Assembly: GCA_038365355.1 (NCBI GenBank) | Contig: JAYPLH010000001.1 | Coordinates: forward strand, 1-32,547 | DNA length: 32,547 bases | Direction: 5' to 3' | DNA from: Fidelibacterota bacterium | GTDB taxonomy: Bacteria; Fidelibacterota; Marinisomatia; Marinisomatales; UBA1611 | Part shown: positions 4,435 through 32,547 of the stretch, piece by piece | Numbering within the stretch: the first letter of the stretch is position 1 | Layout: the number at the start of each line of letters is the position of its first letter | Program-made: the position numbers and the translations under genes | The notes under the pieces: model-generated | Seen by the model: the letters and a program-made list of their open reading frames with translations, nothing else | Database searches by the model: none | What the model was told of the DNA's origin: nothing

Positions 4435-4443
4435 TACATATCA

Positions 4444-11653: not shown

Positions 11654-11716
11654 TATATAATTTATATTATAGAATTAAGCTTTAAAGATAAAGAAATAAT
11701 TGAATATGTTGGATAT

Positions 11717-11752: not shown

Positions 11753-11763
11753 AGCAATCTTAT

Positions 11764-15294: not shown

Positions 15295-15533
15295 TATAAT
15301 TGCTCCTTTAAATTAATTTTTAAGACTTAACTTAAGTTTATGAAAAAATCATAAAGTAACATATGATTAGAATCACATACAGTTCTTCCAACCATTAAAA
15401 GATAATCTATTATGCCAAAAAAATGCAATCTTTTTTCAAAAAATTTTCAAAATGGTGAAAAAAATTTGCAATACACGTAATTATTTGATACTTTTTTTCA
15501 TTATATACATACAATAAATAACTAAAAGAATTA
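15295..15533. promoter_or_regulatory. Divergent intergenic control region between the 1176-aa gene and the LacI-led operon
   Basis: This 239-bp non-coding gap lies between divergent starts. It contains a possible sigma70-like TTGATA (15485-15490), a 19-nt spacer and TACAAT (15510-15515), ahead of the GTG start at 15534. It also has TGCAAT twice (15424-15429, 15467-15472) and TTTTCAAAA twice with 11-bp period (15433-15441, 15444-15452). All of this is weak evidence in AT-rich DNA. Confidence 0.35.
15303..15308 (-). promoter_or_regulatory. Canonical Shine-Dalgarno (AAGGAG) of the 1176-aa gene
   Basis: The plus strand reads ctcctt at 15303-15308, which is AAGGAG on the minus strand. It lies 8 nt upstream of the ATG at 15294. 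Most other genes in the window lack a comparable SD. Confidence 0.6.
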
Positions 15534-16523
15534 GTGCGTACAACATTAAAACAAGTAGCAGACGATACTGGATTATCCATTGCCACAGTTTCTAGGGCTC
15601 TACGCCGAGATAAGAGAAGATATTCCAAAAATGAAGAGAAAATCTATGCTTCAGCTAGGAAATTAGGATATCCTTTTATTGGAGAACTGAACAATGAAGA
15701 GCAATTAACAATCGCTCTTGTCACAGAAGTACATCAGGGTGAGTTTTACTCGTCTTTATTTAACGGCTTTTACAATTCAAGTAAAAACTCTGAGTCCGAT
15801 ATTGTTTTTGTAAATCTTGCAAAACATAGCGATGATCCTGTTCAGCATATTATAAATCTCAGTAAAAAATACAGTGGAATATGTCTTTTCTTACCTAATT
15901 TAGAAAAAATTGACTACAAACGAATACGGCAAGGAGTTGGGAAATATCCAATTATTTCTCTTACGCCAATGAAAAACCCTACTATTGATACGGTCTCATT
16001 TGACTCTTACAGCGGTGGATATATGATTGCAAAACACTTTGAAGAGCAAGGATATAAAAATTTTGGTATTGTTTCCGGTCCTGGAGATGCTGTAGATGCA
16101 GTTTTCCGTAAGAATGGTTTCGTAGACCACATCAGTGAAAAAGAAGATTTAAAACTTGTCTGGGAATATAAGGGTGATTTTAGCAGTGAATCTGGAAGAG
16201 ATGCCTTTAATGACTATAAAAAGAAAAACATTCCTAACATGGCAATTTTTGGATGCAATGACCACACTTGTTTTGGCTTTATGAAGGGAGCCTTAGAAGC
16301 AGGTTACAAAATTCCTAAAGATTTTATAATTGCTGGTTACGATAATCTATCCTTTTGTGACAATTTTACTCCAGAGCTGACTTCCGTTGCAACCAACTTT
16401 GACATCCTAGGGAAAAGAGCAATCCGAACGATTGAAAACATGGTAAACGATAGTAATGAAATAATTCGACAATTTTCAATGGTCCCTGTTGAAATAGTTA
16501 TCAGATCCAGCACACAGAACTAG
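15534..16523 (+). CDS. LacI-family transcriptional regulator
   Basis: 329-aa ORF with a GTG start. The N-terminal HTH is TLKQVADDTGLSIATVSRALRR. The periplasmic-binding-protein-like sugar-sensor core includes GYKNFGIVSGP, AIFGCNDHTCFG and IIAGYDN. Confidence 0.9.
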   Translation: MRTTLKQVADDTGLSIATVSRALRRDKRRYSKNEEKIYASARKLGYPFIGELNNEEQLTIALVTEVHQGEFYSSLFNGFYNSSKNSESDIVFVNLAKHSDDPVQHIINLSKKYSGICLFLPNLEKIDYKRIRQGVGKYPIISLTPMKNPTIDTVSFDSYSGGYMIAKHFEEQGYKNFGIVSGPGDAVDAVFRKNGFVDHISEKEDLKLVWEYKGDFSSESGRDAFNDYKKKNIPNMAIFGCNDHTCFGFMKGALEAGYKIPKDFIIAGYDNLSFCDNFTPELTSVATNFDILGKRAIRTIENMVNDSNEIIRQFSMVPVEIVIRSSTQN

Positions 16524-16544
16524 CGTATAAATATTTAAATTACT

Positions 16545-17840
16545 TTGTTCCAGTACTCAACCAGAGCTCTTTCTTCTATCTGCATATTACTACTTTTTTG
16601 TTCATGCTCTACAAAAACAATTTCCAATGATGGAGACTGGGAACTTGTTTGGCAGGATGAATTCGAAGGTGACAAACTGGACAGATCAAATTGGACTTTT
16701 GATCTAGGAACAGGGGCACCATCTTTCAAAGAGTATGGGCAGAGTTCGCCATATTTTGTACCTGAAAATTTTCCAAGCGATAATTTTTCAGTTCGCTGGG
16801 AAGGAGAAATTAAAATAGACTTTAACACCGAGTATACTTTCTACCTTATTTCTGATGATGGAGTAAGGCTATATGTCAATAACAATGTAATAATTGATAG
16901 CTGGAAACCTCAACCTGCAACAGAAAAACAAGGTGTGATCAAGCTTCAAAAAAATAAAAAATATACTATACAGATTGAGTATTTTGAACAGACTGGTGGA
17001 GAAGCAATAGTTCTTGGATGGGAAAGTGAAAAATTCTCAAAAAGATTAGTACCCAGCTCACATCTATCTACACCCGATGGAAAACCAGGACTTCAGGGAA
17101 CATACTTTAAAAACAGGGAACTGAAACAAACAACCACGGATCCTCCTTTAGTTAGAATAGATAAAGAAATCAACTGGGTTACCGGAGGAGGATGGGGTAA
17201 TAATGAATCTCAATACTATACAGATAGAGCCCAAAATGTTAGAATTGTAGATGGAAAGTTAATCATTGAATCTCACAAAGAGGCCTACAGAGGATCTAAT
17301 TATACCAGTTCACGAATTAAAACAAAAAACAGTTGGAAGTACGGAAGATTTGAAATTAAAGCAAAATTACCACCTGGAAGAGGAACATGGAGCGCCCTTT
17401 GGGCTTTACCTACGGATTGGGAATATGGGAACTGGCCGCTAAGCGGGGAAATTGATATTATGGAGCACGTTGGTTATGATGAAGATATCATTGTAACAAG
17501 CCTTCATAACGCTGCTCTCTCTGCTGGGAAAATTGGCGGAACAGACCAACACGGATATATCGAGCAACCAAATGCTTGTAAAGAATTCAACACGTACACT
17601 CTGGAATGGAGCGAACAAGAGATTAAAATCTTTGTTAATGATAAAATTTCATTACAATATCCAAAACAAGATAAAAATTGGGCAAAATGGCCATTTGATA
17701 AAAGATTTCACTTGCTTTTTAACATTGCAGTAGGCGGTAATTGGGGAGGGGAAAAAGGCATAGATGATAACGCATTCCCATCTAAAATGGAAATAGACTA
17801 TGTTAGAGTTTATTCTAACATAGGAAACAGAGAATCTTAA
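16545..17840 (+). CDS. Lipoprotein GH16 laminarinase (beta-bulge type) with a PA14 domain inserted in an N-terminal loop
   Basis: 431-aa ORF. The only plausible start is TTG at 16545, because an in-frame TAA lies at 16536-16538. The lipobox-like signal is ILLLFCSC. The GH16 start is WELVWQDEFEGDKLDRSNWTFDLGTG, and the domain resumes at GGGWGNNESQYYTDR. The catalytic motif is GEIDIMEHVG (E302, D304, E307; nt 17448-17465). The PA14 hallmarks between the two parts are NFSVRWEGEI, YTFYLISDDGVRLYVNN and YTIQIEYFE. Confidence 0.85.
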   Translation: MFQYSTRALSSICILLLFCSCSTKTISNDGDWELVWQDEFEGDKLDRSNWTFDLGTGAPSFKEYGQSSPYFVPENFPSDNFSVRWEGEIKIDFNTEYTFYLISDDGVRLYVNNNVIIDSWKPQPATEKQGVIKLQKNKKYTIQIEYFEQTGGEAIVLGWESEKFSKRLVPSSHLSTPDGKPGLQGTYFKNRELKQTTTDPPLVRIDKEINWVTGGGWGNNESQYYTDRAQNVRIVDGKLIIESHKEAYRGSNYTSSRIKTKNSWKYGRFEIKAKLPPGRGTWSALWALPTDWEYGNWPLSGEIDIMEHVGYDEDIIVTSLHNAALSAGKIGGTDQHGYIEQPNACKEFNTYTLEWSEQEIKIFVNDKISLQYPKQDKNWAKWPFDKRFHLLFNIAVGGNWGGEKGIDDNAFPSKMEIDYVRVYSNIGNRES

Positions 17841-17843
17841 AAA

Positions 17844-19490
17844 ATGAAAAAAATCATATCCATATTTTTTATCCTAGCAGTCTATTTCTTTGCCTCTTGT
17901 GAGAATAAAACAAACCGAGATCTAGAAGGTCTGATTGTATATCAAGAAAATCAAATTTCCTGGACTCGAAATTTTGAACCATTGAATCCAGTTTCAATAT
18001 GTAGATGGCCTACTAGAGGAGGCATTTACGAGCCTCTATACATTTACAATCCTATCAGCACTGAATGGGTTCCCTGGCTAGCAACAAACTATGAATGGAA
18101 AAACGACAATAGAAAGCTATTATTTTCTATACGAACAGGTGTTAAATGGTCTGACGGGAGAGAATTTAGTGCCTATGACGTAGCATATACTTTAAACTTA
18201 TGGAAACAATTTCCAGCCTTGGATACCCGTAATGCATGGGATTATCTGCAAAATGTTGTTGCAATTTCAGATACATTAGTAGAAGTTGACTTCAAAAGGG
18301 TTTACGTCCCAGGTTTTGAAGCTATTGCAGGGGCCTATATTGTACCAAAACATATATGGAGTAAACTTGATGATCCCCTTAAGTTTGATAACCCTGACCC
18401 TGTTGGAACCGGCCCGTATACAGAAGTATTACGTTTTAACAGCCAAGTATGGGAACTTGGGAAAAATCATAATTATTGGCAAAAAGGAAAACCTCACGTA
18501 GAAAAATTAATTTTCCCCACATTTTCAACTAACGAACAAACAACTCTTGCGCTTCTAAGCGGAAATCTGGACTGGGCAGGAGCGTTTATTCCTGCTATAC
18601 AACGAATCTTTGTTGACAAAAATCCTGAGCACCATCATTACTGGTTTCGAAATACTGGATACTCTACATTTTTACATACCAATACGAAAGACCCTATTTT
18701 ACAAGATACAAATGTGCGAAAAGCAATAAGCTATGCAATAAACCGAGAGCAAGTAGTCAAAGTTGGAATGTATAACTATACCTCTCCTGCCCATGTAACA
18801 AGCCTAGCAGGACCAATGGCTAAATGGCATTCACCAAAAATTAATGAAAAAGAAAATTGGACTGCTTTTAACCTAGAAAAAGCTAATGAGCTACTTGATG
18901 ATGCAGGATATAAGTGGAAAAACAAAAACGAAAGAATAGATTCAAATGGGTCACCATTAAAGTTCAATATAATCGTAGTATCTGGATGGAGCGATTGGGT
19001 TCGATCTGCTCAAGTCATTAGTCAGAACTTAAAGAAAGTCGGAATTCAAGCAACCGTAAGGACCTATGACTTTGGAGCTTGGATTGCTAGGATGCAACAA
19101 GGAAACTTTCAAATGGCTGTTGGATGGGCTGATAAAGGCGCTACCCCTTATAACTTTTTTAAATCAATGATGTTTTCAGAATATGTAAAACCATTAGGAG
19201 AAACTGCTGATATTAATTGGCACAGATTTGGAATTAAAGAAGCAGATTTTTTGATCAAGGAGTTTGAACAAACATCAGATGAAAATAAAATAAAAAATAT
19301 CATTTACAAATTACAACACTTGTTTATAGAACACGCACCTGGTATTCCCCTATTTGCTGAACTTAGTTGGGCAGAATGCAATTCAAAATATTTTACCAAT
19401 TTTCCAAGCGCAGAGAACCCTTATGGACCATTGTCTGTAAATGAACAACCTAGCTTTATTTTTACTTTGTTAAATATTAAAAAAAGATGA
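17844..19490 (+). CDS. ABC transporter substrate-binding lipoprotein, family 5 (Opp/Dpp type), probably oligosaccharide-binding by context
   Basis: 548-aa ORF with lipobox FFASC. Its length and conserved blocks are typical of family-5 binding proteins (WSDGREFSAYDVAYT, VGTGPY, NHNYWQKGKP). It is followed by matching DppB/DppC-type permeases. The sugar specificity is inferred from the flanking glycoside hydrolases. Confidence 0.8.
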   Translation: MKKIISIFFILAVYFFASCENKTNRDLEGLIVYQENQISWTRNFEPLNPVSICRWPTRGGIYEPLYIYNPISTEWVPWLATNYEWKNDNRKLLFSIRTGVKWSDGREFSAYDVAYTLNLWKQFPALDTRNAWDYLQNVVAISDTLVEVDFKRVYVPGFEAIAGAYIVPKHIWSKLDDPLKFDNPDPVGTGPYTEVLRFNSQVWELGKNHNYWQKGKPHVEKLIFPTFSTNEQTTLALLSGNLDWAGAFIPAIQRIFVDKNPEHHHYWFRNTGYSTFLHTNTKDPILQDTNVRKAISYAINREQVVKVGMYNYTSPAHVTSLAGPMAKWHSPKINEKENWTAFNLEKANELLDDAGYKWKNKNERIDSNGSPLKFNIIVVSGWSDWVRSAQVISQNLKKVGIQATVRTYDFGAWIARMQQGNFQMAVGWADKGATPYNFFKSMMFSEYVKPLGETADINWHRFGIKEADFLIKEFEQTSDENKIKNIIYKLQHLFIEHAPGIPLFAELSWAECNSKYFTNFPSAENPYGPLSVNEQPSFIFTLLNIKKR

Positions 19491-20473
19491 ATAAATCCAT
19501 ATTATACATTGCAAGACGATTCGGTTTCTATCTTATAGCTGCATTTGCTGCATTAACTTTAAACTTTATTATTCCAAGATTAATGCCAGGAGACCCAGCT
19601 TCCATTATTTTTGCACGCTTCAAAGGGAAGTTAAAACCAGAAGCGATAGATGCTATGCGAGAAAGCTTTGGTCTAACCAACGATCCAATTATCACTCAAT
19701 ATGCTTCATATTTAAAGGGCATCCTTCAAGGGGACTTGGGAATTTCAATTGCCTATTTTCCTGAACCTGTTTCTGAAATCATTGGAGGCGGTCTCATTTG
19801 GACAATATTTTTAGCAGGAAGCTCTATGGTAATTGCATTCCTAATTGGAACAACTCTAGGTGTCATAATTGCTTGGAATAGAACAGGAAAATTGGATACC
19901 ATTTTACCACCCGCATTAGCATTCTTTGGAGCATTCCCCTATTTCTGGTTAGCAATGGTTGTTCTTTATATTTTTGGTTTTTCTATGAACTGGTTTCCTA
20001 TTGGTCGCGCCTTTGGAAATGAGGTTAATCCAGGATTAAACACACCTTATTTACTGAGCGTCTTATATCATGCTTTTCTACCAGCCTTAACTCTAGTTTT
20101 TGTGAGCCTAGGAGGTTGGATGCTATCCATGCGAAATACTATGATCAGTACTCTGGGTTCAGATTATATTACTTTTGCAAATGCAAAAGGCATCCCATCT
20201 CGATTAATTATGCTTCGTTATGCTGCACGAAATGCTATTCTACCAAACCTAACAGGATTTGGTATGGCTTTGGGTTTTATGTTAAGTGGAGCACTTTTAA
20301 CAGAAATGATTTTTTCTTATCCAGGCCAAGGGTTTCTACTTTTACAGGCTGTACAAAGTCAGGATTATCCTCTTATGCAGGGAATTTTCATGACAATTAC
20401 GCTTGCAGTACTTGGTGCAAACTGGCTAGTGGACATTGCGATTTTGTTTTTTGACCCTAGAACAAGAAGATGA
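19487..20473 (+). CDS. ABC transporter permease (DppB/OppB type)
   Basis: 328-aa ORF with a typical N-terminus (IARRFGFYLIAAFAALTLNFIIPRLMPGDP). It has multiple TM segments and an EAA-like loop (DYITFANAKGIPSRLIMLRYAARNA). The ATGA overlaps with both neighbours. Confidence 0.9.
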   Translation: MNKSILYIARRFGFYLIAAFAALTLNFIIPRLMPGDPASIIFARFKGKLKPEAIDAMRESFGLTNDPIITQYASYLKGILQGDLGISIAYFPEPVSEIIGGGLIWTIFLAGSSMVIAFLIGTTLGVIIAWNRTGKLDTILPPALAFFGAFPYFWLAMVVLYIFGFSMNWFPIGRAFGNEVNPGLNTPYLLSVLYHAFLPALTLVFVSLGGWMLSMRNTMISTLGSDYITFANAKGIPSRLIMLRYAARNAILPNLTGFGMALGFMLSGALLTEMIFSYPGQGFLLLQAVQSQDYPLMQGIFMTITLAVLGANWLVDIAILFFDPRTRR

Positions 20474-21411
20474 ATAATAAAAACAATCTGCAACAAAATA
20501 GTATCTTTACTCGATGGGTTTCTGGAATTATTGAGAATCAAAAAGCATTTAGCGGAAGCTGCATCATCTTATTTTTTGCTTTAGTGGCAATCTTTGTACC
20601 ATTCTTTATTAATTCCCCTACGGATTTTCTTGGTACTCCGCTTTCTCCTCCATCCTTTGAGTACATTTTTGGAACAAATGGTCAAGGACAAGATGTATTC
20701 GCACAAACGATATGCGGAGCAAGGCAGACGCTTTTTGTCGGATTTAGTGCAGGCATTCTTGTTGTAATAATTGGTGCATTAATTGGAGGAATTGCTGGAT
20801 TTTACGGTGGAAGAATAGATGATATCTTGTCTTTATTAATTAATGTTTTCTTAGTAATGCCGGGACTTCCTCTTATGGTAATCCTTGCTAGCTGGCTACC
20901 ACCAACACCTGGAACTTTGCTAGGAGTTTTAGTGCTCACAGGCTGGGCATGGAACGCACGTATCATAAGATCTCAAATGATGACGTTTAGAAATCGAGAT
21001 TTTGTCTCTGCTGCCATCATTAGCGGAGAATCAAATATTCGAATAATTGTTGTCGAAATTATGCCCAGGATGCTTTCTTTACTTGCATCTGCATTTATTG
21101 GAGCATCCATTTACGCTATTGGAGCACAGGTAGGCCTTGAGTTTTTGGGACTAGGGGATATCAGTACTGTCACATGGGGAACAAATCTCTATTGGGCAAG
21201 TAATGATCTTGCACTACTTACAGAATCTTGGTGGACATTTGTGCCTACTGGCCTAAGCATTGCGATCGTCAGTTTTGCCCTTACATTAATTAATTTTGGC
21301 ATTGATGAAGTATCCAACCCTCGACTTATTTCAGAACGCATATGGCGCAACAAGGTTCCAAAAGAGCTAATTAACCATGGAATAACTCCCGTAACTAGTC
21401 AAAATGAATAA
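20470..21411 (+). CDS. ABC transporter permease (DppC/OppC type)
   Basis: 313-aa ORF. It has an OppC-type N-terminal TM segment followed by GTNGQGQDVF. Further TM segments and RNRDFVSAAIISGESNIRII are present. Confidence 0.9.
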   Translation: MNNKNNLQQNSIFTRWVSGIIENQKAFSGSCIILFFALVAIFVPFFINSPTDFLGTPLSPPSFEYIFGTNGQGQDVFAQTICGARQTLFVGFSAGILVVIIGALIGGIAGFYGGRIDDILSLLINVFLVMPGLPLMVILASWLPPTPGTLLGVLVLTGWAWNARIIRSQMMTFRNRDFVSAAIISGESNIRIIVVEIMPRMLSLLASAFIGASIYAIGAQVGLEFLGLGDISTVTWGTNLYWASNDLALLTESWWTFVPTGLSIAIVSFALTLINFGIDEVSNPRLISERIWRNKVPKELINHGITPVTSQNE

Positions 21412-23077
21412 TCCTATTATTTCAGTAAACAACCTATCTGTTGAATACGTTACAGGCATAAAATCTGTTCAAGCTGTGCATAACGTTTCATTTGAGATTA
21501 ATTCAGGAGAAATCTTTGGTCTAGTTGGAGAATCTGGAAGCGGGAAGAGTACAGTAGTGCAAGCAATGATGCGAATACTCCCCCCTCCTGCGCTCATTAG
21601 CAAAGGAAATGTATTTATTAACAATGAAGATATCATGGCTGCTTCAGAAGCCGATATTATCAATTTTCGATGGAAAAAAATCTCCATTGTTATGCAAAGC
21701 GCTCTCAATGCTTTAAACCCTGTTTTATCTGTACGTGAACAAATCCATGATGTCCTAAAAATACATAAAGGTTTAATCGGAATAGAAGCAGATAACCGAG
21801 CCAAAGAATTATTGTCTCTTGTCGATATAGAGTATAATCGATTAGACAGTTTCCCTCATCAATTATCTGGAGGAATGAAACAACGTATTGTTATTGCGAT
21901 TGCTCTTGCAATTATGCCTCCAATAATTATTATGGATGAGCCTACAACCGCACTAGACGTAATCGTGGAACGTGAAATTATATCAAAAGTTATTGAGCTA
22001 AGGAAAAAATTAGATTTTACAATTTTGTTTATCACTCATGATTTAAACTTACTATTAGAATTTGCTGATAGGTTGGCAATAATGAAAGATGGGGAGGTCG
22101 TTGAATTGGATGAAGTTAAAAATATTCAAAAAGGCGGAAAACATCCTTATACCAAAAAATTAATTGGATCCATACCATCTGCATCTGGAGTTCGACAAAA
22201 GGGACTTCTAACAAAACCAGATAAATTAACCTTTCCAAAGGATCCTATTTTAGAAGTTAAAGACCTTGAGAAAGTATTTCAATCTTCAAATATTTTCAAT
22301 AAACAAAAATTAATAGCTGTAAATGGAGTGTCTTTTAAAATTTTTAAAGGAGAAATTATTGGTCTTGTTGGAGAATCAGGAAGTGGTAAAAGTACCATAG
22401 CAAAATTGGTAACACGCTTAATGAGGCCATCTGCGGGATCTATTTACCTTAATGGTCAAAACAAAAAAGTTACCGAATCTAGAAATGTCCCACTTGAATA
22501 TCGTAAAACGGTTCAAATGGTTTTTCAGGATCCATTTGGGTCCCTCAATTCTATTCATACCGTATACCATCATTTAGCAAGACCTTTATTTAGACATAAA
22601 TTAAAAGATCAAACAGAAATGTTTCCGTATATCGTTCATTTATTAGAAAAGGTTGGTCTTACTCCTGGAGATAAATTTGCGAAAAAATTTCCTCACGAAA
22701 TGTCTGGAGGAGAAAGACAACGGGTTGCAATTGCAAGGGCTTTAAGCTTAGATCCTCAGATTATAGTAGCAGATGAACCCACTTCAATGTTAGATGTTTC
22801 CATAAGAATGGATGTGCTTGAAATTTTTGCAAAAATGCGAAAAGAAAATAATTTAACTGTTCTGTTTATTACTCACGATCTAGCCTCTGCTCGATATTTG
22901 GCAGATAGAATAATTGTATTGAAAAATGGAGCCATTGTAGAAGAAAACGCCTCTGAAAAGCTAATACAAAGCCCAAAAAAAGAGTATACAAAACAACTAG
23001 TTACAGCAGCATCACCTGGTTGGCTAAGTAGTCTTGGAGAAAATTTTGAAAAAAAGGAAGAGTATAATGACCAATAA
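21404..23077 (+). CDS. Fused double ABC ATPase (DppD-DppF type)
   Basis: 557-aa ORF with two full nucleotide-binding domains. Walker A is GESGSGKST twice. The signatures are LSGGMKQR and MSGGERQR. Walker B is IIIMDEPTTALD and IIVADEPTSMLD. Confidence 0.92.
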   Translation: MNNPIISVNNLSVEYVTGIKSVQAVHNVSFEINSGEIFGLVGESGSGKSTVVQAMMRILPPPALISKGNVFINNEDIMAASEADIINFRWKKISIVMQSALNALNPVLSVREQIHDVLKIHKGLIGIEADNRAKELLSLVDIEYNRLDSFPHQLSGGMKQRIVIAIALAIMPPIIIMDEPTTALDVIVEREIISKVIELRKKLDFTILFITHDLNLLLEFADRLAIMKDGEVVELDEVKNIQKGGKHPYTKKLIGSIPSASGVRQKGLLTKPDKLTFPKDPILEVKDLEKVFQSSNIFNKQKLIAVNGVSFKIFKGEIIGLVGESGSGKSTIAKLVTRLMRPSAGSIYLNGQNKKVTESRNVPLEYRKTVQMVFQDPFGSLNSIHTVYHHLARPLFRHKLKDQTEMFPYIVHLLEKVGLTPGDKFAKKFPHEMSGGERQRVAIARALSLDPQIIVADEPTSMLDVSIRMDVLEIFAKMRKENNLTVLFITHDLASARYLADRIIVLKNGAIVEENASEKLIQSPKKEYTKQLVTAASPGWLSSLGENFEKKEEYNDQ

Positions 23078-24425
23078 TAAATTTCCAAAAGATTTTTTTT
23101 GGGGTACTGCAACCTCAAGTTACCAAATAGAGGGTGCTCCAGATGCAGATGGTAAAGGTCTTTCTGTTTGGGATACTTTTAGCCATAAAAAAGATACTAT
23201 AAAAAATGGAGACACTGGGGATGTTGCTTGTGATCATTATCATCTTTGGCCAAAAGATTTAGATCTCTTAGAAAATCTAGGAGTAAACTCATATAGGTTT
23301 TCAATTAGCTGGCCTAGGATTCTTCCAACAGGCAAAGAAAACAAGCCTAACCAAGCTGGATTGGACTTTTATAGCCGATTAGTAGACAACCTTCTTGAAA
23401 GAGGGATAACTCCTTTTCTTACTCTAAACCATTGGGATATTCCACAAGGTTTAGAGAATGAAGGCGGATGGACGGAAAGAATGATGGTTGATGCATTTGT
23501 AAAGTATAGCTACCACACTAGTAAACATCTTGGAGATAGAGTTAAGCATTGGATTACTCATAATGAACCGTGGTGTGTAAGTCATATTGGATATGTTGCT
23601 GGTCATAAACCACCTGGTCTTAAAAATGATTGGCCTAAAAGCCTGTCTGCTGCTCATCATCTACTTCTTTCCCATGGTATGGCTATTCCAGAAATCAGAA
23701 ATAATGTACAAGATGAAAAAGTAGGAATAACATTAAACTTGAATACTGCAATACCCGCATCTCCTAGTGAACATGATAAAAAAGCCTGCGACTTTTTTGA
23801 TAATATGTTTAATCGACTCTTTTTAGAACCTCTTTACAATAGAAAATACCCACTAGAACTTTTTGATGAACTTAAAAAACGAAAAAATATTACCGATAAA
23901 GATTTAAACTTTATCAAAGACAATGACCTTGAAATCATCGCCCAAAAAACAGACTTTTTAGGTGTCAATTATTACAGCCGAGGTGTAATTAGAAATGAAG
24001 AAATTAGTGAGGAAGAAAATTTACCTAAAAACATAGAAATGGGTCCGGAGACTGATTTTGGATGGGAAGTATACCCCCCTGGTCTATATGATCTACTCAT
24101 AAAACTAAAAAAAGAGTATAACGTGGAAAAGATTTTTATTACAGAAAATGGATGCTCATACTCAGATGGTCCAAATGAAGAAAATAAAATCAATGATCAA
24201 AGAAGAATAGATTATCATCATACCCATTTGATTGAAATACAAAAAGCTATCCATGATGGCGTGGACTGTAAAGGGTATTTTGCATGGTCATTAATGGATA
24301 ACTTTGAGTGGGCACAGGGATTCAGCCAAAGGTTTGGACTAGTTTGGGTTGATTTTGAATCATTAGATCGTATTCCAAAAGAAAGTTATCATTGGTATAA
24401 AAATTATATTTCAAACAATAAATAA
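23067..24425 (+). CDS. GH1 beta-glucosidase, cytoplasmic
   Basis: The family start is FPKDFFWGTATSSYQIEGA, the acid/base is ITHNEPW and the nucleophile is ITENG. There is no signal peptide. I place the start at the internal ATG 23067 (MTNNKFPKDFFWG), which is preceded by AGGAAG and overlaps the ATPase stop by 11 nt. The track start at 23034 seems less likely. Confidence 0.9.
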   Translation: MTNNKFPKDFFWGTATSSYQIEGAPDADGKGLSVWDTFSHKKDTIKNGDTGDVACDHYHLWPKDLDLLENLGVNSYRFSISWPRILPTGKENKPNQAGLDFYSRLVDNLLERGITPFLTLNHWDIPQGLENEGGWTERMMVDAFVKYSYHTSKHLGDRVKHWITHNEPWCVSHIGYVAGHKPPGLKNDWPKSLSAAHHLLLSHGMAIPEIRNNVQDEKVGITLNLNTAIPASPSEHDKKACDFFDNMFNRLFLEPLYNRKYPLELFDELKKRKNITDKDLNFIKDNDLEIIAQKTDFLGVNYYSRGVIRNEEISEEENLPKNIEMGPETDFGWEVYPPGLYDLLIKLKKEYNVEKIFITENGCSYSDGPNEENKINDQRRIDYHHTHLIEIQKAIHDGVDCKGYFAWSLMDNFEWAQGFSQRFGLVWVDFESLDRIPKESYHWYKNYISNNK

Positions 24426-24437
24426 GAGAAGATTCGA

Positions 24438-25781
24438 ATGAATTCACCTGAAAATACATCCATCTATTTAACCTCTAAAGATTCAAATCACAGACTTGAA
24501 AAAATTTCGGCAAGTGAAATATCAACGGTTTCAAAAACAGAGTTACAGTCTATTCGTCTGCACAAAAAAAATATTCGGCAAAGCATATTAGGTTTTGGAG
24601 GTGCTTTTACGGAAGCATCTGCAAGTATTTATGATCAGCTTGATAAAAATAAAAAAAATAAAGTTATTGAAGCATACTTCGGTAAAAGTGGGAATCAGTA
24701 CAATATGGGCAGAACTCACATAAACAGTTGCGATTTTTCATTGGGAAACTATGCTCTTTGCGAAACTGAAGATCGAGAATTAACAGACTTTTCTATTCAA
24801 AGAGATAAAAAGATGCTCATCCCATTTATCAAATCAGCTCTTGAAAAAGCATCTACTCCTATTCATATTATGGCCTCTCCTTGGAGCCCACCTCCATGGA
24901 TGAAAACAAATAATCAAATGAATCACGGTGGAAAGCTCAAAGAAGAGTATCGGGGTACTTGGGCTGAATATTATTGTAAATACATAAAATTTTACGAAGA
25001 AGATGGTGTTCCTATATGGGGAATCTCTGTACAAAATGAACCCGAAGCAGTACAGACGTGGGACTCATGTGTATACTCAGGAGAAGAAGAGCGAGATTTT
25101 ATAAAGAATTTTTTAGGTCCTGCTTTAGAAAAAAATAAATATCTTGATAAAAAACTTGTAATATGGGATCATAACCGAGACGTAATGGTCAGACGATCGA
25201 GAGCGGTGTTGTCAGACCCTGATGCTGCAAAATACGTATGGGGTACTGGTTTTCACTGGTATAATGGTGATCATTTTGACGAGGTCCAAAAGGTGCATGA
25301 TGAATTCCCCGACAAAAAATTAATATTTACAGAGGGTTGCCAAGAGGAAGGGCCACATCTTGGTTCGTGGGATTTAGGAGAAAGATATGCAACTTCTATT
25401 ATACATGATCTCAATAGATGGACAGTAGCCTGGATTGATTGGAACCTATTACTAGATGAAAACGGTGGACCAAATCATGTTGGCAATTATTGCAGTGCAC
25501 CTATAATAGTTGATACCAAGACCCAGGAATTACTTTTCCAAAGCTCTTATTATTACTTAGGTCATTTTTCTAGATTTTTTAGTAGAGGAGATAAAATTAT
25601 TAAAAGTGAGAATAATACCAACACACTTCTTGCACTTTCTGCTATTGATAAAAATCAAAAAATAACTACAACAATTATGAATAAAGAGGAAAATAGCGTA
25701 CCATTTTTATATGAAAATGGTTCAAGCTCTAAACCCTTTTCAATACCCCCTAGATCTATTATTACCATAATAAGCCAATAA
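24438..25781 (+). CDS. GH30 glycosidase (glucosylceramidase / beta-1,6-glucosidase-like), apparently cytoplasmic
   Basis: 447-aa ORF with GFGGAFTEASA and SPWSPPPWMKTN. The acid/base context is ISVQNEPE and the nucleophile context is IFTEGC. The hydrophilic N-terminus MNSPENTSIYLTSKDSNHR has no signal peptide. Confidence 0.85.
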   Translation: MNSPENTSIYLTSKDSNHRLEKISASEISTVSKTELQSIRLHKKNIRQSILGFGGAFTEASASIYDQLDKNKKNKVIEAYFGKSGNQYNMGRTHINSCDFSLGNYALCETEDRELTDFSIQRDKKMLIPFIKSALEKASTPIHIMASPWSPPPWMKTNNQMNHGGKLKEEYRGTWAEYYCKYIKFYEEDGVPIWGISVQNEPEAVQTWDSCVYSGEEERDFIKNFLGPALEKNKYLDKKLVIWDHNRDVMVRRSRAVLSDPDAAKYVWGTGFHWYNGDHFDEVQKVHDEFPDKKLIFTEGCQEEGPHLGSWDLGERYATSIIHDLNRWTVAWIDWNLLLDENGGPNHVGNYCSAPIIVDTKTQELLFQSSYYYLGHFSRFFSRGDKIIKSENNTNTLLALSAIDKNQKITTTIMNKEENSVPFLYENGSSSKPFSIPPRSIITIISQ

Positions 25782-25799
25782 AAAAAACGAACTATATAA

Positions 25800-28700
25800 A
25801 TGAAAGATAATCTGTACAAAATATCAAATTTCAAAGATATTGATCCTTTTCTCATGTCGATTACAAGTGCTGACAATCACTGGATGTATATTAGTAGCTC
25901 AGGATGTTTAAGTGCTGGAAGACAAAAAGCTGAGCATGCTCTGTTCCCTTATGTGACAGATGATTTGTTACATAAAAATGCACATTTTACGGGTCCAATA
26001 ACATGTATTTCTATTGATAAAGATAATAAAAAGTATTCTTGGCAACCTTTTTCAAATCAAATCGATAATTACAAAAAGAATCAGAATCTTTATAAAAATA
26101 GTTTAGGTAATAAAATAGTCTTTGAAGAAATCAATCATACTATCGGACTCACATTTCTCTATAGCTGGCAGGCATCTGCAAGATATGGTTTTGTTAAAAA
26201 AACTAAATTATTAAATCATAGTGGTAAAAAATTAAATATTAAGCTAGTTGATGGTTTAAGAAACATCTTACCTGCTGGAGTAAGTTTGAGAACACAGCAG
26301 GAGATGAGCAACCTGGCAAATGCATATAAAGTATCCGAATGTAATTCAGATTATAATTATGCTTTATATTATATGAACGCATTACTAATGGACAAACCAG
26401 ACCCTGGAGAATCGCTGTTTTCAAATATAGTTTGGTCACACTCTAGTGATAATATTGAACTTTCAGTGAATGAAAAATCAATTAGTACATTTTTGTCTAG
26501 TAATGAATTTGAGAAAGACCACTTACTAAAAGGTAAAGAAGGTAGCTTTTTAAACTTCATTCAAAAACCATTACCCTCTGATCAAGAAATGACCTGGTAT
26601 ATCATTGCAGATGTACAAAAATCTCAGTCTGACATTAGTTCAATTATTTCAGATTTAAAGGACAGTGATTCCATTGAAAAGAAACTAGAAAAAAGTTTAG
26701 CAGATAATTACAGTGCATTTGAAAAAAATATTGGAATGGCTGATGGATTCCAATGTACAGAGTTAGAAATAAATGATTTACATCATACAGCAAATGTTAC
26801 ATACAATGTTTTAAGGGGCGGAGTGTTTTTTGATAACTACAAGATACAAAAAAATAGCTTTGTATTATTTTTACAGAAGAGAAGTAAGAAGACATTTGAA
26901 GCTTATCAAACTAACATTAACCAACTCCCCGATTCTTTTAATATTAAAGATCTTTTAGAATTTGGTGACAAATTAAATAAACCTTCTATACGAAGGCTTT
27001 GCCGAGAATACCTTCCCCTTACGCTAGGAAGAAGACACGGAGACCCTAGCAGGCCATGGAATCATTTTAATATTCTAACAAAGGATATAAATGGTGACCC
27101 AGTACTTTATTTTGAAGGAAATTGGAGAGATATTTTTCAAAACTGGGAAGCACTAGGACTTAGTTATCCTAACTCATGGGAATCAATGGTGTCTATATTT
27201 TTAAATGCAACATCTGCTGATGGCTATAATCCATACAGAATCACAAGCTATGGCATTGATTGGGAAATTATAGAGCCTGATGATTCTTGGAGTCATATTG
27301 GATACTGGAACGACCATCAAATTATATATCTTTTAAAGTTACTAGAACATTTAAACGCTACTTACCCAGAAAGAATAGAGGAATTATTTAACGATGCAAT
27401 TTTTAGTTATGCAAATATTCCGTACAAAATAAAAAAGTTTAAAAAAATAGCTGAAAACCCTAAAGAAACAATTGACTTTGATTTTGAAAACCACAATAAA
27501 ATCTTGAACTTAGTTAATGAATTAGGATCTGATGGTAGATTACTGCTGAATAAGGACAAAGATGTTTACCACGTAACCTTATGTGAAAAACTTCTCGTTT
27601 TATCTCTAGCAAAAATTTGTAATTATGTTCCAGGAGCAGGAATATGGCTCAATACCCAACGACCTGAGTGGAATGATGCAAACAATGCATTAGTTGGAAA
27701 TGGATGCTCAATGGTAACTGTATATTACCTCAAAAGATTTCTTAACTTTTTCAAAGAGATTATCTCACAAATTAAAACAAAAAATATTAATATTTCTTCA
27801 GAAGTATTATTTTGGTTCCATGAAGTAGATGCAGAAATAACCAAAAATAAACATAAAAGCCATACTCTATTCTCCGATAAAGAGAGGATGAATTATGTAT
27901 CTGGCTTAGGAGAAATATTTGAAAATTATCGGGAGAAAATATACTCTTCAGGATTTAGCACTTTTGAGCAATTATCTTTAAATAAACTAGAAAGTTTTCT
28001 TTCAAAAATCTGTAGTCAATTTAATGAGACTATCTTCGACAATCGTAAGGATAATGGATTATTTGATGCTTATAACACAATAAATATTGATTCTAAAAAT
28101 CAGTCCATTGATATAAAAAAACTAGACCTTATGCTCGAGGGTCAAGTTGCTGGACTAAGCTGCGAATCACAAAAACCGTATAGCACTACTTCAACCCTGA
28201 AGTCACTTTTTTCCAGCAACCTGTACCGTGCTGATATGAAAAGTTTTATTTTATATCCTGAAAAAAAGATTACTCCTTTCTTAAATAAAAATATTATTGA
28301 CCCAGACCATCTTAAAAAGAGTATTTTATTAAGAAAAATGGTGGACCAAAAAAACACATCAATTGTAGAGCAGGATTCCGATGGGAATTTTCGTTTTAAC
28401 CCTAAATTTCGAAATATATTTGATTTAATTAATGCACTAAAACAATTACCAAAATCAGAAATTGAGGATATACCATTTGAAAAAGAATTAGAACATATTT
28501 CCAATATTTATGAACTTGTTTTTAATCATAGAAATTTTACAGGAAGATCTGGAACAATGTTTTCTTATGAAGGCATTGGATCAATATATTGGCATATGGT
28601 CTCAAAATTACTTTTAGCAACCCAAGAAAACTTCTTTTTAGCAAAAAACAATAATTCTTTTGAAAGAAATAATGTCCAAAGCCTTGGAAGATATTACTAT

Positions 28701-29207
28701 GAAATAAGAGAGGGTTTGAGCGCAGCTAAAACTCCAAAAGAATATGGCGCATTTCCTTTTGATCCCTACTCACATACCCCATCTCATTCAGGAGCACAAC
28801 AACCTGGGATGACGGGTCAAGTCAAGGAAGAAATCTTAACTAGGTTTGGAGAGCTTGGATGCTTTGTTCAAAATGGATGCATAATGTTTGATACTAGTCT
28901 TTTATCAAAAGAAGAATTCCTGATAAAAAACCAGATTTTTACTTATTTTGATATTTCTAAAACAAAAAGATCTCTTGAAATTCTTAAAAATCAACTCGCA
29001 TATACTTTTTGCCAAGTACCCATAGTATACACTCTGTCCAAACAGGATTATCGTATTAATTTAATTTTAAATGACAACTCTAACATTAAAATAGAAGGAA
29101 ATTTTATTGATCAAAAAAGAAGTCGTTCAATTTTTAATCGAGATGGTAGTGTAACCAAAATTCAATTTCAGGTTCATGAAAAGTTTTTATTTAACAATAA
29201 CAAATAA
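25800..29207 (+). CDS. Large cytoplasmic (alpha/alpha)6-type glycoside phosphorylase/hydrolase candidate, GH94-clan-like (GH149/GH161-like beta-1,3-glucan phosphorylase hypothesis)
   Basis: 1135-aa ORF with no signal peptide. The ordered motifs are GNWRDIFQNWE (aa 440-450), RPEWNDANNAL (aa 621-631, D626 at nt 27675-27677), YEGIGSIYWH (aa 923-932) and HSGAQQPGMTGQ (aa 996-1007). I recall the same order in GH94 phosphorylases: xRDxxQD, DWND with the catalytic Asp, ENGGIFxH, and LTGT. The coding region is certain; the function is inferred. Confidence 0.5.
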   Translation: MKDNLYKISNFKDIDPFLMSITSADNHWMYISSSGCLSAGRQKAEHALFPYVTDDLLHKNAHFTGPITCISIDKDNKKYSWQPFSNQIDNYKKNQNLYKNSLGNKIVFEEINHTIGLTFLYSWQASARYGFVKKTKLLNHSGKKLNIKLVDGLRNILPAGVSLRTQQEMSNLANAYKVSECNSDYNYALYYMNALLMDKPDPGESLFSNIVWSHSSDNIELSVNEKSISTFLSSNEFEKDHLLKGKEGSFLNFIQKPLPSDQEMTWYIIADVQKSQSDISSIISDLKDSDSIEKKLEKSLADNYSAFEKNIGMADGFQCTELEINDLHHTANVTYNVLRGGVFFDNYKIQKNSFVLFLQKRSKKTFEAYQTNINQLPDSFNIKDLLEFGDKLNKPSIRRLCREYLPLTLGRRHGDPSRPWNHFNILTKDINGDPVLYFEGNWRDIFQNWEALGLSYPNSWESMVSIFLNATSADGYNPYRITSYGIDWEIIEPDDSWSHIGYWNDHQIIYLLKLLEHLNATYPERIEELFNDAIFSYANIPYKIKKFKKIAENPKETIDFDFENHNKILNLVNELGSDGRLLLNKDKDVYHVTLCEKLLVLSLAKICNYVPGAGIWLNTQRPEWNDANNALVGNGCSMVTVYYLKRFLNFFKEIISQIKTKNINISSEVLFWFHEVDAEITKNKHKSHTLFSDKERMNYVSGLGEIFENYREKIYSSGFSTFEQLSLNKLESFLSKICSQFNETIFDNRKDNGLFDAYNTINIDSKNQSIDIKKLDLMLEGQVAGLSCESQKPYSTTSTLKSLFSSNLYRADMKSFILYPEKKITPFLNKNIIDPDHLKKSILLRKMVDQKNTSIVEQDSDGNFRFNPKFRNIFDLINALKQLPKSEIEDIPFEKELEHISNIYELVFNHRNFTGRSGTMFSYEGIGSIYWHMVSKLLLATQENFFLAKNNNSFERNNVQSLGRYYYEIREGLSAAKTPKEYGAFPFDPYSHTPSHSGAQQPGMTGQVKEEILTRFGELGCFVQNGCIMFDTSLLSKEEFLIKNQIFTYFDISKTKRSLEILKNQLAYTFCQVPIVYTLSKQDYRINLILNDNSNIKIEGNFIDQKRSRSIFNRDGSVTKIQFQVHEKFLFNNNK

Positions 29208-29222: not shown

Positions 29223-31049
29223 ATGAACAAAGTTTTTTTATATCTAATAGTTTCCTTTGCAACTCTTTTTGGAAGTGATTTATTACAACTAAAAAATGGA
29301 AAAATCACCAACAAAAAGAATCAACCGATTTTCCTAAAAGGTGTCAATACAGGTAATTGGCTTATGCTTGAAATGTGGATGTTAAACTATGCTGGTAAAG
29401 GTATTGAAGATCAACACGAATTTATTGAAACTCTAGAACATAGATTTGGAAAAGAAAAAGCTGAAAAACTGATGGATATATATCGATCTCATTGGATGAA
29501 AGAGAGTGACTTTGATATTATAAAATCATTTGGTATGAATACTATTAGATTACCGTTTGATTACAAACTTCTGATGGATTCAGATATAAAACCATTCAAA
29601 TTAAAAAATGATGCTTGGGAATGGTTAGATCTCACCATTAAAATTGCAAAAGAAAAAGGACTTTATGTTATTCTCGATATGCACGGAGCACCGGGACGAC
29701 AAAGCGGTATGGATCACTCAGGAAGAGTTGGTTATAATAAGCTATGGTCTAATAAAGGATTTCAAGATCAAACTGCTTGGCTTTGGAAACAGATATCCAA
29801 TCGATATAAAAACGAATCTACTGTTGCAGCTTATGACCTCTTAAATGAGCCTTGGGGTAGTAGTGAGAAAAATTTGAAAAAAATTGTTCTGAAGTGCTAC
29901 AAAGAAATAAGGAAAAATAATGATGATCATTTAGTGATTTTCCCAGGGCATACTAGCGGAATTGATTTTTATCAAAATATTAAATCTGTAGAATTAAATA
30001 ATGTTATATACACCATGCACTTCTATCCAGGTTTTTTTGGATGGGGATCAGCAACTCCATTTATACACGCAGAATTTTTATTAGAAGGTTTACCAAATTG
30101 GGTAGCAAAAATGGAAGAATTCAATAGCCCATTATTAATTGGCGAGTTTAACGTCGTACTGAAAGGTGCTGGCGGTGGTGAGATGATGCGGAGATATTAT
30201 GATTTTTATGAATCCTTATACTGGCCAGCAACAATGTGGTCTTATAAAGTTCTTGATGCAAATGGAGGAGTTGGAGATGGAACGTGGGGCATGGTAACTA
30301 ATGCTAAAGACATAAATTATGTAAATTTAAAAACCGCTTCTTACAATGAAATACGTGATTGGTTTATTTCTTTTGGAGAAATGGAAATATCTATAGATAA
30401 AGATCTAAAGTATTGGCTTACTACAAAAAACAAACCAGCTGTTTTAGATGAATTACCTCCAAAACCACCCTCTATAATAAAACCTCCTCATGAAGATCCT
30501 TTACCAATGTCATGGAAAGTCCGAGATATTGGAAGACCCTTAAAAGGCGGGCAAAAAGTAAATGAAAACAACTGGTCATTTTATGGAGGTGGTAATGATA
30601 TTTGGAATACAAATGATCAGTTCCGATATGCATATCAAAAATTAAATACAGACTTTAGTTTTAGTATAAAAATTGACTCACTATATAATGTTCATCAATA
30701 TGCTAAAGCAGGACTCATGATCCGAAAAAGCCTAAATTCAAATTCTGCACATGGGTTAATTAATATGTTTCCAAGCGGTAATACCGAGTTTGGCTACAGA
30801 ACAAATAATGGTGAGACTATGGAAGCTAAATCTGGACCCCAAATTGATTTAACAGATGCACGATTAAAAATGAAGAAATCAGGTAAAATTATTGAATTTT
30901 TTGTTTTGAGTAGTAATGATTGGCAAAAGCTCGGAGAATTAAATGTTTCAAAATGGGGAAAATCATTTTACGTAGGAATAGCTACTCTCTCTCATGACAA
31001 CTCACAATTAACCAAGGCTCAATATTCTGAAATAGTTTTAACTAATTAA
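29223..31049 (+). CDS. Exported GH5 beta-glucanase / glucan 1,3-beta-glucosidase-like enzyme with C-terminal concanavalin-like jelly-roll domain
   Basis: 608-aa ORF with signal peptide MNKVFLYLIVSFATLFG. It has NTIRLPF and VILDMHGAPGRQSGMDHSG, the latter resembling yeast exo-1,3-glucanase DLHGAPGSQNGFDNSG. The acid/base is YDLLNEPW (E209) and the nucleophile is LIGEFN (E308). The C-terminal ~180 aa (nt 30504-31046) carry WKVRDIG, GGGNDIWNTNDQFRYAYQ and YAKAGLMIRKSL. Confidence 0.8.
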   Translation: MNKVFLYLIVSFATLFGSDLLQLKNGKITNKKNQPIFLKGVNTGNWLMLEMWMLNYAGKGIEDQHEFIETLEHRFGKEKAEKLMDIYRSHWMKESDFDIIKSFGMNTIRLPFDYKLLMDSDIKPFKLKNDAWEWLDLTIKIAKEKGLYVILDMHGAPGRQSGMDHSGRVGYNKLWSNKGFQDQTAWLWKQISNRYKNESTVAAYDLLNEPWGSSEKNLKKIVLKCYKEIRKNNDDHLVIFPGHTSGIDFYQNIKSVELNNVIYTMHFYPGFFGWGSATPFIHAEFLLEGLPNWVAKMEEFNSPLLIGEFNVVLKGAGGGEMMRRYYDFYESLYWPATMWSYKVLDANGGVGDGTWGMVTNAKDINYVNLKTASYNEIRDWFISFGEMEISIDKDLKYWLTTKNKPAVLDELPPKPPSIIKPPHEDPLPMSWKVRDIGRPLKGGQKVNENNWSFYGGGNDIWNTNDQFRYAYQKLNTDFSFSIKIDSLYNVHQYAKAGLMIRKSLNSNSAHGLINMFPSGNTEFGYRTNNGETMEAKSGPQIDLTDARLKMKKSGKIIEFFVLSSNDWQKLGELNVSKWGKSFYVGIATLSHDNSQLTKAQYSEIVLTN

Positions 31050-31170
31050 AATATTATTAGCTCGATATGTTTGTAAAAAAAGAGTAAATACAAATCATAG
31101 CTTAAATAATACCAAAAGAGAATGCTCTTATGTATTCCTATGCAGTAAAATATTCTTAGAACAAAAAAAA

Positions 31171-32547
31171 CTATTTGATCAGTATCATTTTTTCGGTGCG
31201 AATAAATTCTCCAGATTCAAGAGAATAAAAATAAACTCCCGCGGACACTGACAACCCCTGATTATTGATAGCGTTCCATACAACAGATTTATTCCCTTTA
31301 GTTTGAAAGCTATTTACCAATGTTTTGACTTCTCTCCCCATCAAATCGATAACTTTTAAAATAACAAAATTATCTTTTGGTAACGCGTATCTTATTACTG
31401 TTGATGGATTAAATGGATTTGGAAAATTTTGAAATAAGTGAAAATCCTCTGGTATCCGTGCATTCATAAAAATGGATAAATCTGTATTTGAAAGACCAGG
31501 AGTGGGTAACATAAAGCCCCACTCATCATTCCCATCTGGAATCCTTCCATAGGATTGATCAGCTGTTTGCGGACCAAAAGAAACTGAATCAATAACTGTT
31601 ACGCCATCTGATTTCAGCAATTTAATTTCCTCACCATCCATACTTAATTTAAAGTTGGTATGTAGCAGTCCTTGGGACTCATCATCATCACACCATACAA
31701 GCAAAAAATCTCCAGGAGAAATTGTACTCGCCGTATCCGGAAATTGCCATTGATCTGAACCTTCTACTAATAATAATCCAGATAAATTTAAACTCTGATT
31801 TGTTGGATTGTATAACTCAATCCAATCGTCATATTCACCAGCCTCATCAGTATTGATTGTATTGTTGCTAGCTAATAATTCATTTATTTTTAATTGATCA
31901 ATAAAGGCATAAGTGATTTCATAGGGATAATCATCAGAGCTATACATGTAATAAGCACCGATATCAGAATTTGTTCCATCCTGATCCAATGGAAAATTTG
32001 GGCTACCTGAATTCAAGCAAGGAGAGTGACTAGCAAGTTCTAAATTATATATAGTCTGATCTAAAAACTGTGGGTCAGAAAATAAATTTCCTTCTCCCTG
32101 CAAAAGTTCAGAATCAGAAAGAGAGTACGTTACCGATGCACTTGAAAAGTCATCTAAATAAATTGATGATGAAGCATTACCAGAGAATATTGTATTTATT
32201 ATTTCTGCTGAACCACCTCCGGCACCATCATTTTTTTCAAAGCAAGATATGGAGGTATCATTATTGAAGAAAGTATTATTAGTAATATAAGCAAACGAAT
32301 TATCCTTAACAGCAATTCCATTATTACAACCAACGACCAAATTTTTATCCAAAGTGACGGATGAACTTTGCCCCACAGAAATCCCCTTGTCCCAGGCATG
32401 ATAAATTAAATTGGAAACAATTAAAATATCTTCTGAACTTTCTCCAATGTCTATACCATCCGAATTTGATCCATTAAAATTATAAATACGATTATTCCTA
32501 ACAATTCCATTATTCACATTATCAAGATCAATAGCATCTGTGTCTTC
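31171..32547 (-). CDS. 5'-truncated gene: secreted right-handed beta-helix repeat protein + lamin-tail domain (LTD) + T9SS CTD
   Basis: The frame stays open to the window edge (EDTDAIDLDNV precedes the track start). Parallel beta-helix repeats are present (NNRIYNF..DGIDIGESS..ILIVSNLIYH..KGISVGQSS..NGIAVKDNS..). The LTD signature is INELLASNN...EYDDWIELYNPTNQSLNLSGLLL. The CTD is NFPNPFNPSTVIRYALPKD...AGVYFYSL...MILIK. Confidence 0.75.
   Translation of the reverse strand, partial: EDTDAIDLDNVNNGIVRNNRIYNFNGSNSDGIDIGESSEDILIVSNLIYHAWDKGISVGQSSSVTLDKNLVVGCNNGIAVKDNSFAYITNNTFFNNDTSISCFEKNDGAGGGSAEIINTIFSGNASSSIYLDDFSSASVTYSLSDSELLQGEGNLFSDPQFLDQTIYNLELASHSPCLNSGSPNFPLDQDGTNSDIGAYYMYSSDDYPYEITYAFIDQLKINELLASNNTINTDEAGEYDDWIELYNPTNQSLNLSGLLLVEGSDQWQFPDTASTISPGDFLLVWCDDDESQGLLHTNFKLSMDGEEIKLLKSDGVTVIDSVSFGPQTADQSYGRIPDGNDEWGFMLPTPGLSNTDLSIFMNARIPEDFHLFQNFPNPFNPSTVIRYALPKDNFVILKVIDLMGREVKTLVNSFQTKGNKSVVWNAINNQGLSVSAGVYFYSLESGEFIRTEKMILIK

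Follow-up and report, generated by a model that had tools for sequence, protein, structure and literature searches.

A predicted GH149 β-1,3-glucan phosphorylase within a putative laminarin-utilisation operon of Candidatus Neomarinimicrobiota

In the window analysed here (the whole stretch of 32,547 nucleotides of contig JAYPLH010000001.1, with a G+C content of 35%), the open reading frame (ORF) at 25800..29207 on the + strand very probably encodes a cytoplasmic GH149 β-1,3-glucan (laminaridextrin) phosphorylase. The host is a marine bacterium of Candidatus Neomarinimicrobiota (Marinimicrobia/SAR406, Marinisomatales). According to the ORF listing of the window, the gene starts with ATG and specifies 1135 amino acids (aa); an ORF of 3.4 kb is not expected by chance, because of the 35% G+C of the window and the family matches at E=0. 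Judged by its sequence, the protein is a member of GH149 proper, related to GH161 and GH94 only at the level of clan GH-Q, and by homology it is predicted to carry out the phosphate-dependent, inverting phosphorolysis of β-1,3-gluco-oligosaccharides with a degree of polymerisation (DP) of at least 2 to α-glucose 1-phosphate (Glc-1-P). In the cell, it would convert imported laminari-oligosaccharides into Glc-1-P by phosphorolysis in the cytoplasm. The original prediction on this DNA had located the gene and four ordered motifs in its product (NWRDIFQNWE at aa 441-450, PEWNDANNAL at 622-631, EGIGSIYWH at 924-932, and QPGMTGQ at 1001-1007), in exact agreement with the ORF list and with a residue check.

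Family assignment and active-site residues

The assignment is carried by a curated family model and by a characterised enzyme. The NCBIfam equivalog model NF058639.1 (GH149_beta_1_3, "1,3-beta-D-glucan phosphorylase, GH149 family") matches the protein with 1450.4 bits, its cutoff being 1150, and the alignment is end to end, running from residue 3 to 1125 of the protein and from position 15 to 1133 of the 1134-position profile. The best sequence match in the PDB, as found by HMMER, is the GH149 enzyme Pro_7066 (6HQ6/6HQ8), with E=3e-300 for query residues 5-1127 against chain residues 51-1171; identity across 1123 residues is ~44% by alignment count and 43% by Foldseek, and a 30-homologue profile gives 1651 bits against the same enzyme. 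Pro_7066 has been proven to be a β-1,3-glucan phosphorylase that uses acceptors from glucose to G6 with similar efficiency, and it is one of the two enzymes on which GH149 was founded, the other being EgP1 of Euglena (PMC5827456). Pfam gave no match to the 1135-aa protein except a spurious DUF3861 fragment (E=0.028), a null result that says nothing against GH149 membership because no Pfam model matches GH149. Far from lacking similarity to GH94, GH149 and GH161, a case for which the original prediction had allowed, the protein is thus aligned end to end, above the cutoff, with a model of one of them. Another idea of that prediction, that the protein might found a new family, was not borne out: the existing curated model already covers the whole protein, and on this match, together with the fold match to 6HQ6 described below, the idea was rejected.

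The residues on which catalysis would depend are conserved as well. In the published active site of Pro_7066, W651, N652 and D653 form the catalytic loop (D653 being the predicted catalytic Asp), R470 and D471 form the RD motif involved in sugar 1-phosphate recognition, E951 contacts the donor site and H959 recognises phosphate. The PDB chain of Pro_7066 carries a 19-residue tag offset, which was applied when mapping residues, and the gene and its equivalent positions are the following:

25800..29207, + strand: predicted GH149 β-1,3-glucan (laminaridextrin) phosphorylase gene (ORF, NCBIfam NF058639.1, PDB 6HQ6, fold match)
27126..27131, + strand: RD motif R443-D444, predicted sugar 1-phosphate recognition (R470/D471 of Pro_7066)
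27669..27677, + strand: WND catalytic loop W624-N625-D626, with D626 the predicted catalytic acid (W651/N652/D653 of Pro_7066)
28569..28595, + strand: EGIGSIYWH, with E924 as the predicted donor-site contact and H932 as the predicted phosphate-recognition His (E951 and H959 of Pro_7066)
28800..28820, + strand: QPGMTGQ, conserved loop Q1001-Q1007 (same letters in 6HQ6)

Across 30 homologues aligned with the query (A1), whose identities to it are 44-85%, no variation is seen at R443, D444, W624, N625, D626, E924 and H932 or anywhere in the QPGMTGQ loop. The original prediction had already singled out D626 as the catalytic Asp and R443 and H932 as phosphate-site residues, and in the sequence alignment these positions indeed fall on D653, R470, and H959 of Pro_7066. 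In GH94 phosphorylases, a Thr-containing loop binds phosphate; by analogy, the QPGMTGQ loop of the 1135-aa protein probably has a phosphate-binding role. An antisense ORF of 120 aa at 28142..28504 was discarded as spurious, as it lies wholly within the conserved GH149 coding region.

Predicted fold and nearest structural relatives

Pro_7066 consists of a β-sandwich (residues 1-303), a helical linker (304-341), a catalytic domain (342-1045) and a jelly roll (1046-1156), and its catalytic domain contains two GH149-specific insertions, Dom 1 (370-428) and Dom 2 (852-938; PMC6771811). All these domains, Dom 1 and Dom 2 included, align to the window protein with single-residue gaps only, and the mapped boundaries are:

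25800..26627, + strand: N-terminal β-sandwich (~aa 1-276), followed by the helical linker (~aa 277-314), from the Pro_7066 mapping
26742..28853, + strand: (α/α)6 catalytic domain (~aa 315-1018), from the Pro_7066 mapping
Within the catalytic domain, + strand: counterparts of Dom 1 (~aa 343-402) and Dom 2 (~aa 825-911), from the Pro_7066 alignment
28854..29204, + strand: C-terminal jelly roll (~aa 1019-1135), matching Pro_7066 residues 1046-1156

An AlphaFold2 model made from the 30-sequence alignment (mean predicted local distance difference test score, pLDDT, of 80.7; predicted template modelling score, pTM, of 0.80) has strands at 5-274, helices at 276-312, and β strands at 1021-1126. The gap of ~300 aa between the second and third motifs, which the original prediction had found to fit inserted domains of GH149 type, is real and holds the counterpart of Dom 2, although this insertion explains only part of it.

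When the model was compared with the PDB by Foldseek, the GH149 structures 6HQ6/6HQ8 came at the top with a template modelling (TM) score of 0.86 over 1130 columns. They were followed by the GH161 chains 9gy9 and 9qqk (TM 0.61-0.64), the GH94 laminaribiose phosphorylase structures 6GGY and 6GH3 (TM 0.56-0.57) and other GH94 phosphorylases (TM 0.44-0.48), identity to GH94 being 8-11% overall. This ranking bears on the alternative that the protein is a hydrolytic (α/α)6 glycosidase (GH15/GH63/GH116/GDE-like) and not a phosphorylase. Such hydrolases have the catalytic-domain fold in common with it, and the fold search does return GH116 and GH63 at E ~1e-8, but with TM scores of 0.21-0.29 and ~9% identity they rank far below 37 phosphorylase structures. 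In addition, the RD, WND and His residues specific to phosphorylases do not vary, and no hydrolase family model was matched in Pfam or NCBIfam. The original prediction had looked to hydrolytic best matches as the outcome that would tell against it, and the order of TM scores is instead GH149, GH161, GH94 and, far below, GH116/GH63. A hydrolytic enzyme was therefore rejected on the NF058639.1 match and the Foldseek ranking, and its likelihood is close to nil.

A second alternative is that of an enzyme functionally of GH161 or GH94 type. In its favour, GH149, GH161, and GH94 have clan GH-Q and their catalytic residues in common, and GH161 chains are the second-best among the PDB matches. The distinction has functional content: phosphorolysis by GH161 needs a DP of at least 3, GH149 acts down to DP 2, and PsLBP, of GH94, is limited to the disaccharide. 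GH161 (PapP; PDB 9qqk, 9gy9) resembles the window protein in clan, catalytic residues, β-1,3 specificity and fold score, and even in gene company (ABC transporter, GH1/GH30). Its sequence similarity is, however, only partial: in the HMMER searches of PDB sequences, GH161 chains match in three partial stretches (E ~1e-21 with the single sequence and 1e-26 with the 30-sequence profile) with 15-16% identity by Foldseek, as opposed to the full-length match to GH149 at E=0, and the kinship stays at clan level. The GH94 enzymes (PsLBP 6GGY/6GH2, CBP, CDP) have the same succession of β-sandwich, linker, (α/α)6 barrel and jelly roll and the same RD/WND/His apparatus, but they are devoid of Dom 1 and Dom 2, and no GH94 sequence similarity was found by Pfam or, among PDB sequences, by single-sequence or profile HMMER searches. 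An enzyme of GH161 or GH94 type is on these grounds highly improbable. Of the phosphorylase of the GH94 clan, GH149- or GH161-like, that had been proposed originally, the GH149 part has been substantiated by NF058639.1, Pro_7066 and the fold, and the GH161 part has fallen away with the partial matches.

The comparison with Pro_7066 itself, which is metagenomic and Bacteroidetes-like, summarises the GH149 assignment. Both proteins belong to one length class, align collinearly across 1123 residues and share the four domains, both insertions (Dom 1 and Dom 2), the active-site RD, WND, E and H residues and the QPGMTGQ loop, and the TM score between model and crystal structure is 0.86. They differ in that identity is only ~43-44%, that Y841 and E990 of Pro_7066 are K814 and R964 in the window protein, and that the window host belongs to Neomarinimicrobiota and is not a flavobacterium.

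Gene neighbourhood and its conservation

The GH149 gene is the penultimate one of a co-directional string on the + strand, which faces a divergent module on the other strand:

15534..16523, + strand: LacI-family regulator, first in the string (Pfam LacI and Peripla_BP_3)
16545..17840, + strand: GH16 laminarinase-like protein with PA14 and a lipoprotein-like N-terminus (Pfam Glyco_hydro_16 and PA14; N-terminus ending in LLLFCSCS)
17844..23077, + strand: Opp/Dpp-type ABC importer comprising an SBP_bac_5 protein, two permeases and a fused double-ABC ATPase (Pfam)
23034..24425, + strand: GH1 β-glucosidase, no signal peptide (TIGR03356, 577.6 bits against a cutoff of 478.5)
24438..25781, + strand: GH30 protein (glucosylceramidase/β-1,6-glucanase-like), no signal peptide, upstream of the GH149 gene (Pfam Glyco_hydro_30)
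29223..31049, + strand: GH5 protein with signal peptide, last in the string, downstream of the GH149 gene (Pfam Cellulase)
128..15294, - strand: divergent outer-membrane/secreted module (Pfam, NCBIfam)

Gene junctions within the + string are short or overlapping. The GH30 protein has similarity, below cutoff, to an endo-1,6-β-glucanase model and matches PDB 2wnw at 2e-88, and the best PDB relatives of the GH5 protein include exo-β-1,3-glucanases. The C-terminal domain of the latter (~190 aa, aa ~420-608), for which no Pfam, NCBIfam or PDB sequence match was found, may be a carbohydrate-binding module. The ABC ATPase gene (21404..23077, + strand) encodes one 557-aa protein with two ABC_tran domains, of fused DppD/DppF type. 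The GH1 ORF, as listed, begins with TTG and shares its first 44 bp with the end of the ATPase gene; its true start is probably the ATG at 23067, 11 codons in, because the family model matches from residue 17. A hydrophobic N-terminal segment is present in the GH16-PA14 protein, the binding protein and the GH5 protein (Kyte-Doolittle mean of 2.4-2.8) and lacking in the GH1, GH30, and 1135-aa proteins, whose best 12-residue means are 0.2-0.7. By this hydropathy heuristic, the claim of the original prediction that the phosphorylase is cytoplasmic and free of a signal peptide holds, and so does its description of the gene as lying between a cytoplasmic GH30 and a GH5 gene, downstream of an ABC importer, which agrees with the Pfam assignments and, for GH30, with the hydropathy values.

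This organisation is conserved in related bacteria. Among genome records, the closest are three Candidatus Neomarinimicrobiota metagenome-assembled genomes (MAGs), one of them labelled Marinisomatales, with 85-91% protein identity. Of the MAG loci, the two longer ones (L002 and L003) have the genes from LacI to GH5 in the order of the window, with 80-95% identity per protein, and the third one, a 10.5-kb contig starting within the ATPase gene (L001), keeps the window order from there to GH5. The ATPase gene of L002 (5602..7273) and the GH1 gene of L003 (7229..8621) appear as split, overlapping tblastn matches, which suggests frameshifts, owing either to assembly errors or to pseudogenes; the window copies are intact. 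A search of contigs for the encoded protein found no exact copy of the 1135-aa protein, and its nearest cluster representative, 99% identical, lies on a 1.33-Mb ENA contig. The protein collection holds at least 8000 relatives, of which the nearest named ones are from Marinimicrobia, followed by Flavobacteriaceae with ~45% identity.

A similar arrangement has been described for the GH149 type I clusters of Proteobacteria, in which an ABC cassette and the phosphorylase are accompanied by LacI/AraC regulators (PMC5827456). In the window, too, a single string combines GH149 with LacI, an SBP_bac_5 (COG0747-type) protein, two permeases and ABC ATPase domains. It differs from those clusters in the addition of GH16-PA14, GH1, GH30 and GH5, in facing a module with a TonB receptor and GH16 cargo of the type IX secretion system (T9SS), and in its ATPases, which are encoded by two separate genes in the published clusters and by one fused 557-aa protein here. 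The locus consequently shows elements of type I together with those of type II and of clusters resembling polysaccharide utilisation loci (PULs), i.e., TonB receptor, GH16 and GH30.

The divergent module on the - strand contains a CBM4_9/CBM9 protein with a T9SS tail, a TonB-dependent receptor, a PorV/FadL-like protein, two GH16 proteins with T9SS tails, and two proteins of 1157 aa (5511..8984) and 488 aa (2968..4434). From its adjacency and its GH16 content, we infer that it belongs to the same pathway as the + string. The 1157-aa protein is encoded directly downstream of the TonB-dependent receptor and has a C-terminus weakly resembling a T9SS tail, and the nearby 488-aa protein is lipoprotein-like; neither of them has a Pfam match or a PDB sequence match. 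Since they are placed like SusD and the surface glycan-binding proteins of Bacteroidota PULs, they could, by analogy, be new glycan-binding components. At the other end of the window, a β-helix/lamin-tail-domain (LTD) protein with a T9SS C-terminal sorting domain (31171..32517, - strand) runs off the window end; it is kept beside the operon in related MAGs with 69-94% identity. In L002 and L003, an additional 543-aa ORF (15258..16889, - strand) is found between the GH5 gene and the LTD/T9SS gene. The window has no counterpart of it at 31049..31171, the spacing between both genes being only ~120 bp.

Substrate, proposed pathway and significance

The remaining uncertainty lies in the predicted activity and in the exact substrate range, and several points have to be set against a cytoplasmic laminaridextrin phosphorylase. 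The nearest characterised enzyme, Pro_7066, is only ~43-44% identical. Four model loops (409-447, 621-630, 910-929 and 984-1005) have pLDDT values below 50, and because these are active-site loops the residue equivalences given above rest on the alignment to the crystal-structure sequence and not on three-dimensional superposition. Of the surface oligosaccharide site of Pro_7066, the window protein retains only a part (K814 and R964 stand in place of Y841 and E990, Y993 and E994 are kept as Y967 and E968), so that chain-length preference could differ from that of Pro_7066. The localisation relies on a crude hydropathy heuristic and not on a signal-peptide predictor, and co-transcription of the + string is inferred from gene spacing only. 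Scans of the window gave 69 promoter-like sites, as compared with 71 expected from shuffled sequence, and five terminator-like sites, as compared with 10 expected. Finally, no phosphoglucomutase gene was found in the window. Regarding the surface site, the authors of the Pro_7066 structure described it as variable in more distant GH149 members, and hence it does not define the family.

The low-pLDDT segments of the model coincide with its most conserved loops (RD, WND, EGIGSIYWH and QPGMTGQ). With 30 sequences the alignment is shallow and its invariant columns provide no covariation, so that the low values are probably artificial; they may also reflect loops that become ordered only upon substrate binding or dimer formation.

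Some of these points lend themselves to another explanation, namely a GH149-fold phosphorylase with a physiological substrate or direction different from that of Pro_7066. Examples would be action on branched or mixed-linkage β-glucans, narrower chain lengths or an intracellular β-1,3-glucan store made from Glc-1-P. This would fit the limited identity to Pro_7066 and the replacement of two of the four surface-site residues checked; moreover, the kinetics of EgP1 and Pro_7066 already diverge by acceptor length (PMC5827456), and phosphorylases are reversible. On the other hand, the match above cutoff is to an equivalog-level model (NF058639.1), the donor-site and catalytic residues are all invariant, the catabolic operon to which the gene belongs also encodes an importer, GH16, GH30, GH1 and GH5, and glucan-synthesis or storage genes are absent nearby. 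A different substrate or direction is therefore unlikely, and the degradation of imported β-1,3-gluco-oligosaccharides is the preferred role for the GH149 protein.

According to its homology with Pro_7066 and clan GH-Q, the enzyme would act by inverting phosphorolysis, in which inorganic phosphate attacks the non-reducing terminal β-1,3 glucosidic bond. D626 of the WND loop would be the general acid, R443/D444 and E924 would hold the glucosyl/Glc-1-P moiety in subsite -1, and H932, probably together with the QPGMTGQ loop, would hold the phosphate. The products would be α-Glc-1-P and a chain one unit shorter, and the cycle could be repeated down to glucose. As suggested by the gene content of the locus, laminarin would be cleaved outside the cell by the T9SS-secreted and lipoprotein GH16 laminarinases, and the fragments would enter through the TonB-dependent receptor to be processed by the periplasmic GH5. 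The SBP_bac_5 ABC importer would then carry the oligosaccharides into the cytoplasm, where GH30 would take off β-1,6 branches, GH149 would phosphorolyse the β-1,3 backbone stepwise to Glc-1-P, and GH1 would hydrolyse the leftover disaccharides. The operon would be under the control of the LacI-type repressor. The conversion of Glc-1-P into Glc-6-P by phosphoglucomutase consumes no kinase ATP, an energy saving by phosphorylases that is established biochemistry, and the Glc-1-P formed in this bacterium would enter glycolysis by this route with the same benefit. A more speculative extension, put forward tentatively and with considerable doubt, is that the altered surface site (K814, R964) marks a Marinimicrobia GH149 clade with another chain-length or branch preference, and that the locus is a SusD-less laminarin system of SAR406, in which the 1157-aa and 488-aa proteins, T9SS GH16s and the TonB receptor would replace SusD and surface glycan-binding proteins and feed the ABC importer and the phosphorolytic route.

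In the founding paper of the family, the bacterial phyla with GH149 were Proteobacteria and Bacteroidetes, in addition to Euglenophyceae (PMC5827456), and a survey of 2024 regarded the family as found exclusively or predominantly in Bacteroidetes. In the open-access literature searched, GH149 was not described from Marinimicrobia, and the single paper retrieved that mentions both names regards the family as dominated by Bacteroidetes. What is slightly new is the host phylum, which the founding paper does not list. The gain for enzymology is small: the family with its fold, its catalytic residues and the gene clusters typical of it has been in print since 2018-2019, and a curated NCBI model already names the protein. 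The two close homologues with a usable source name carry the label "hypothetical protein" in public records, and the gene could be confidently re-annotated; it is also a reasonable candidate for a biocatalyst panel. The finding has a modest ecological value in Candidatus Neomarinimicrobiota (SAR406), an uncultivated marine phylum, where it points to a complete and conserved laminarin-utilisation operon with a phosphorolytic step that would save ATP.

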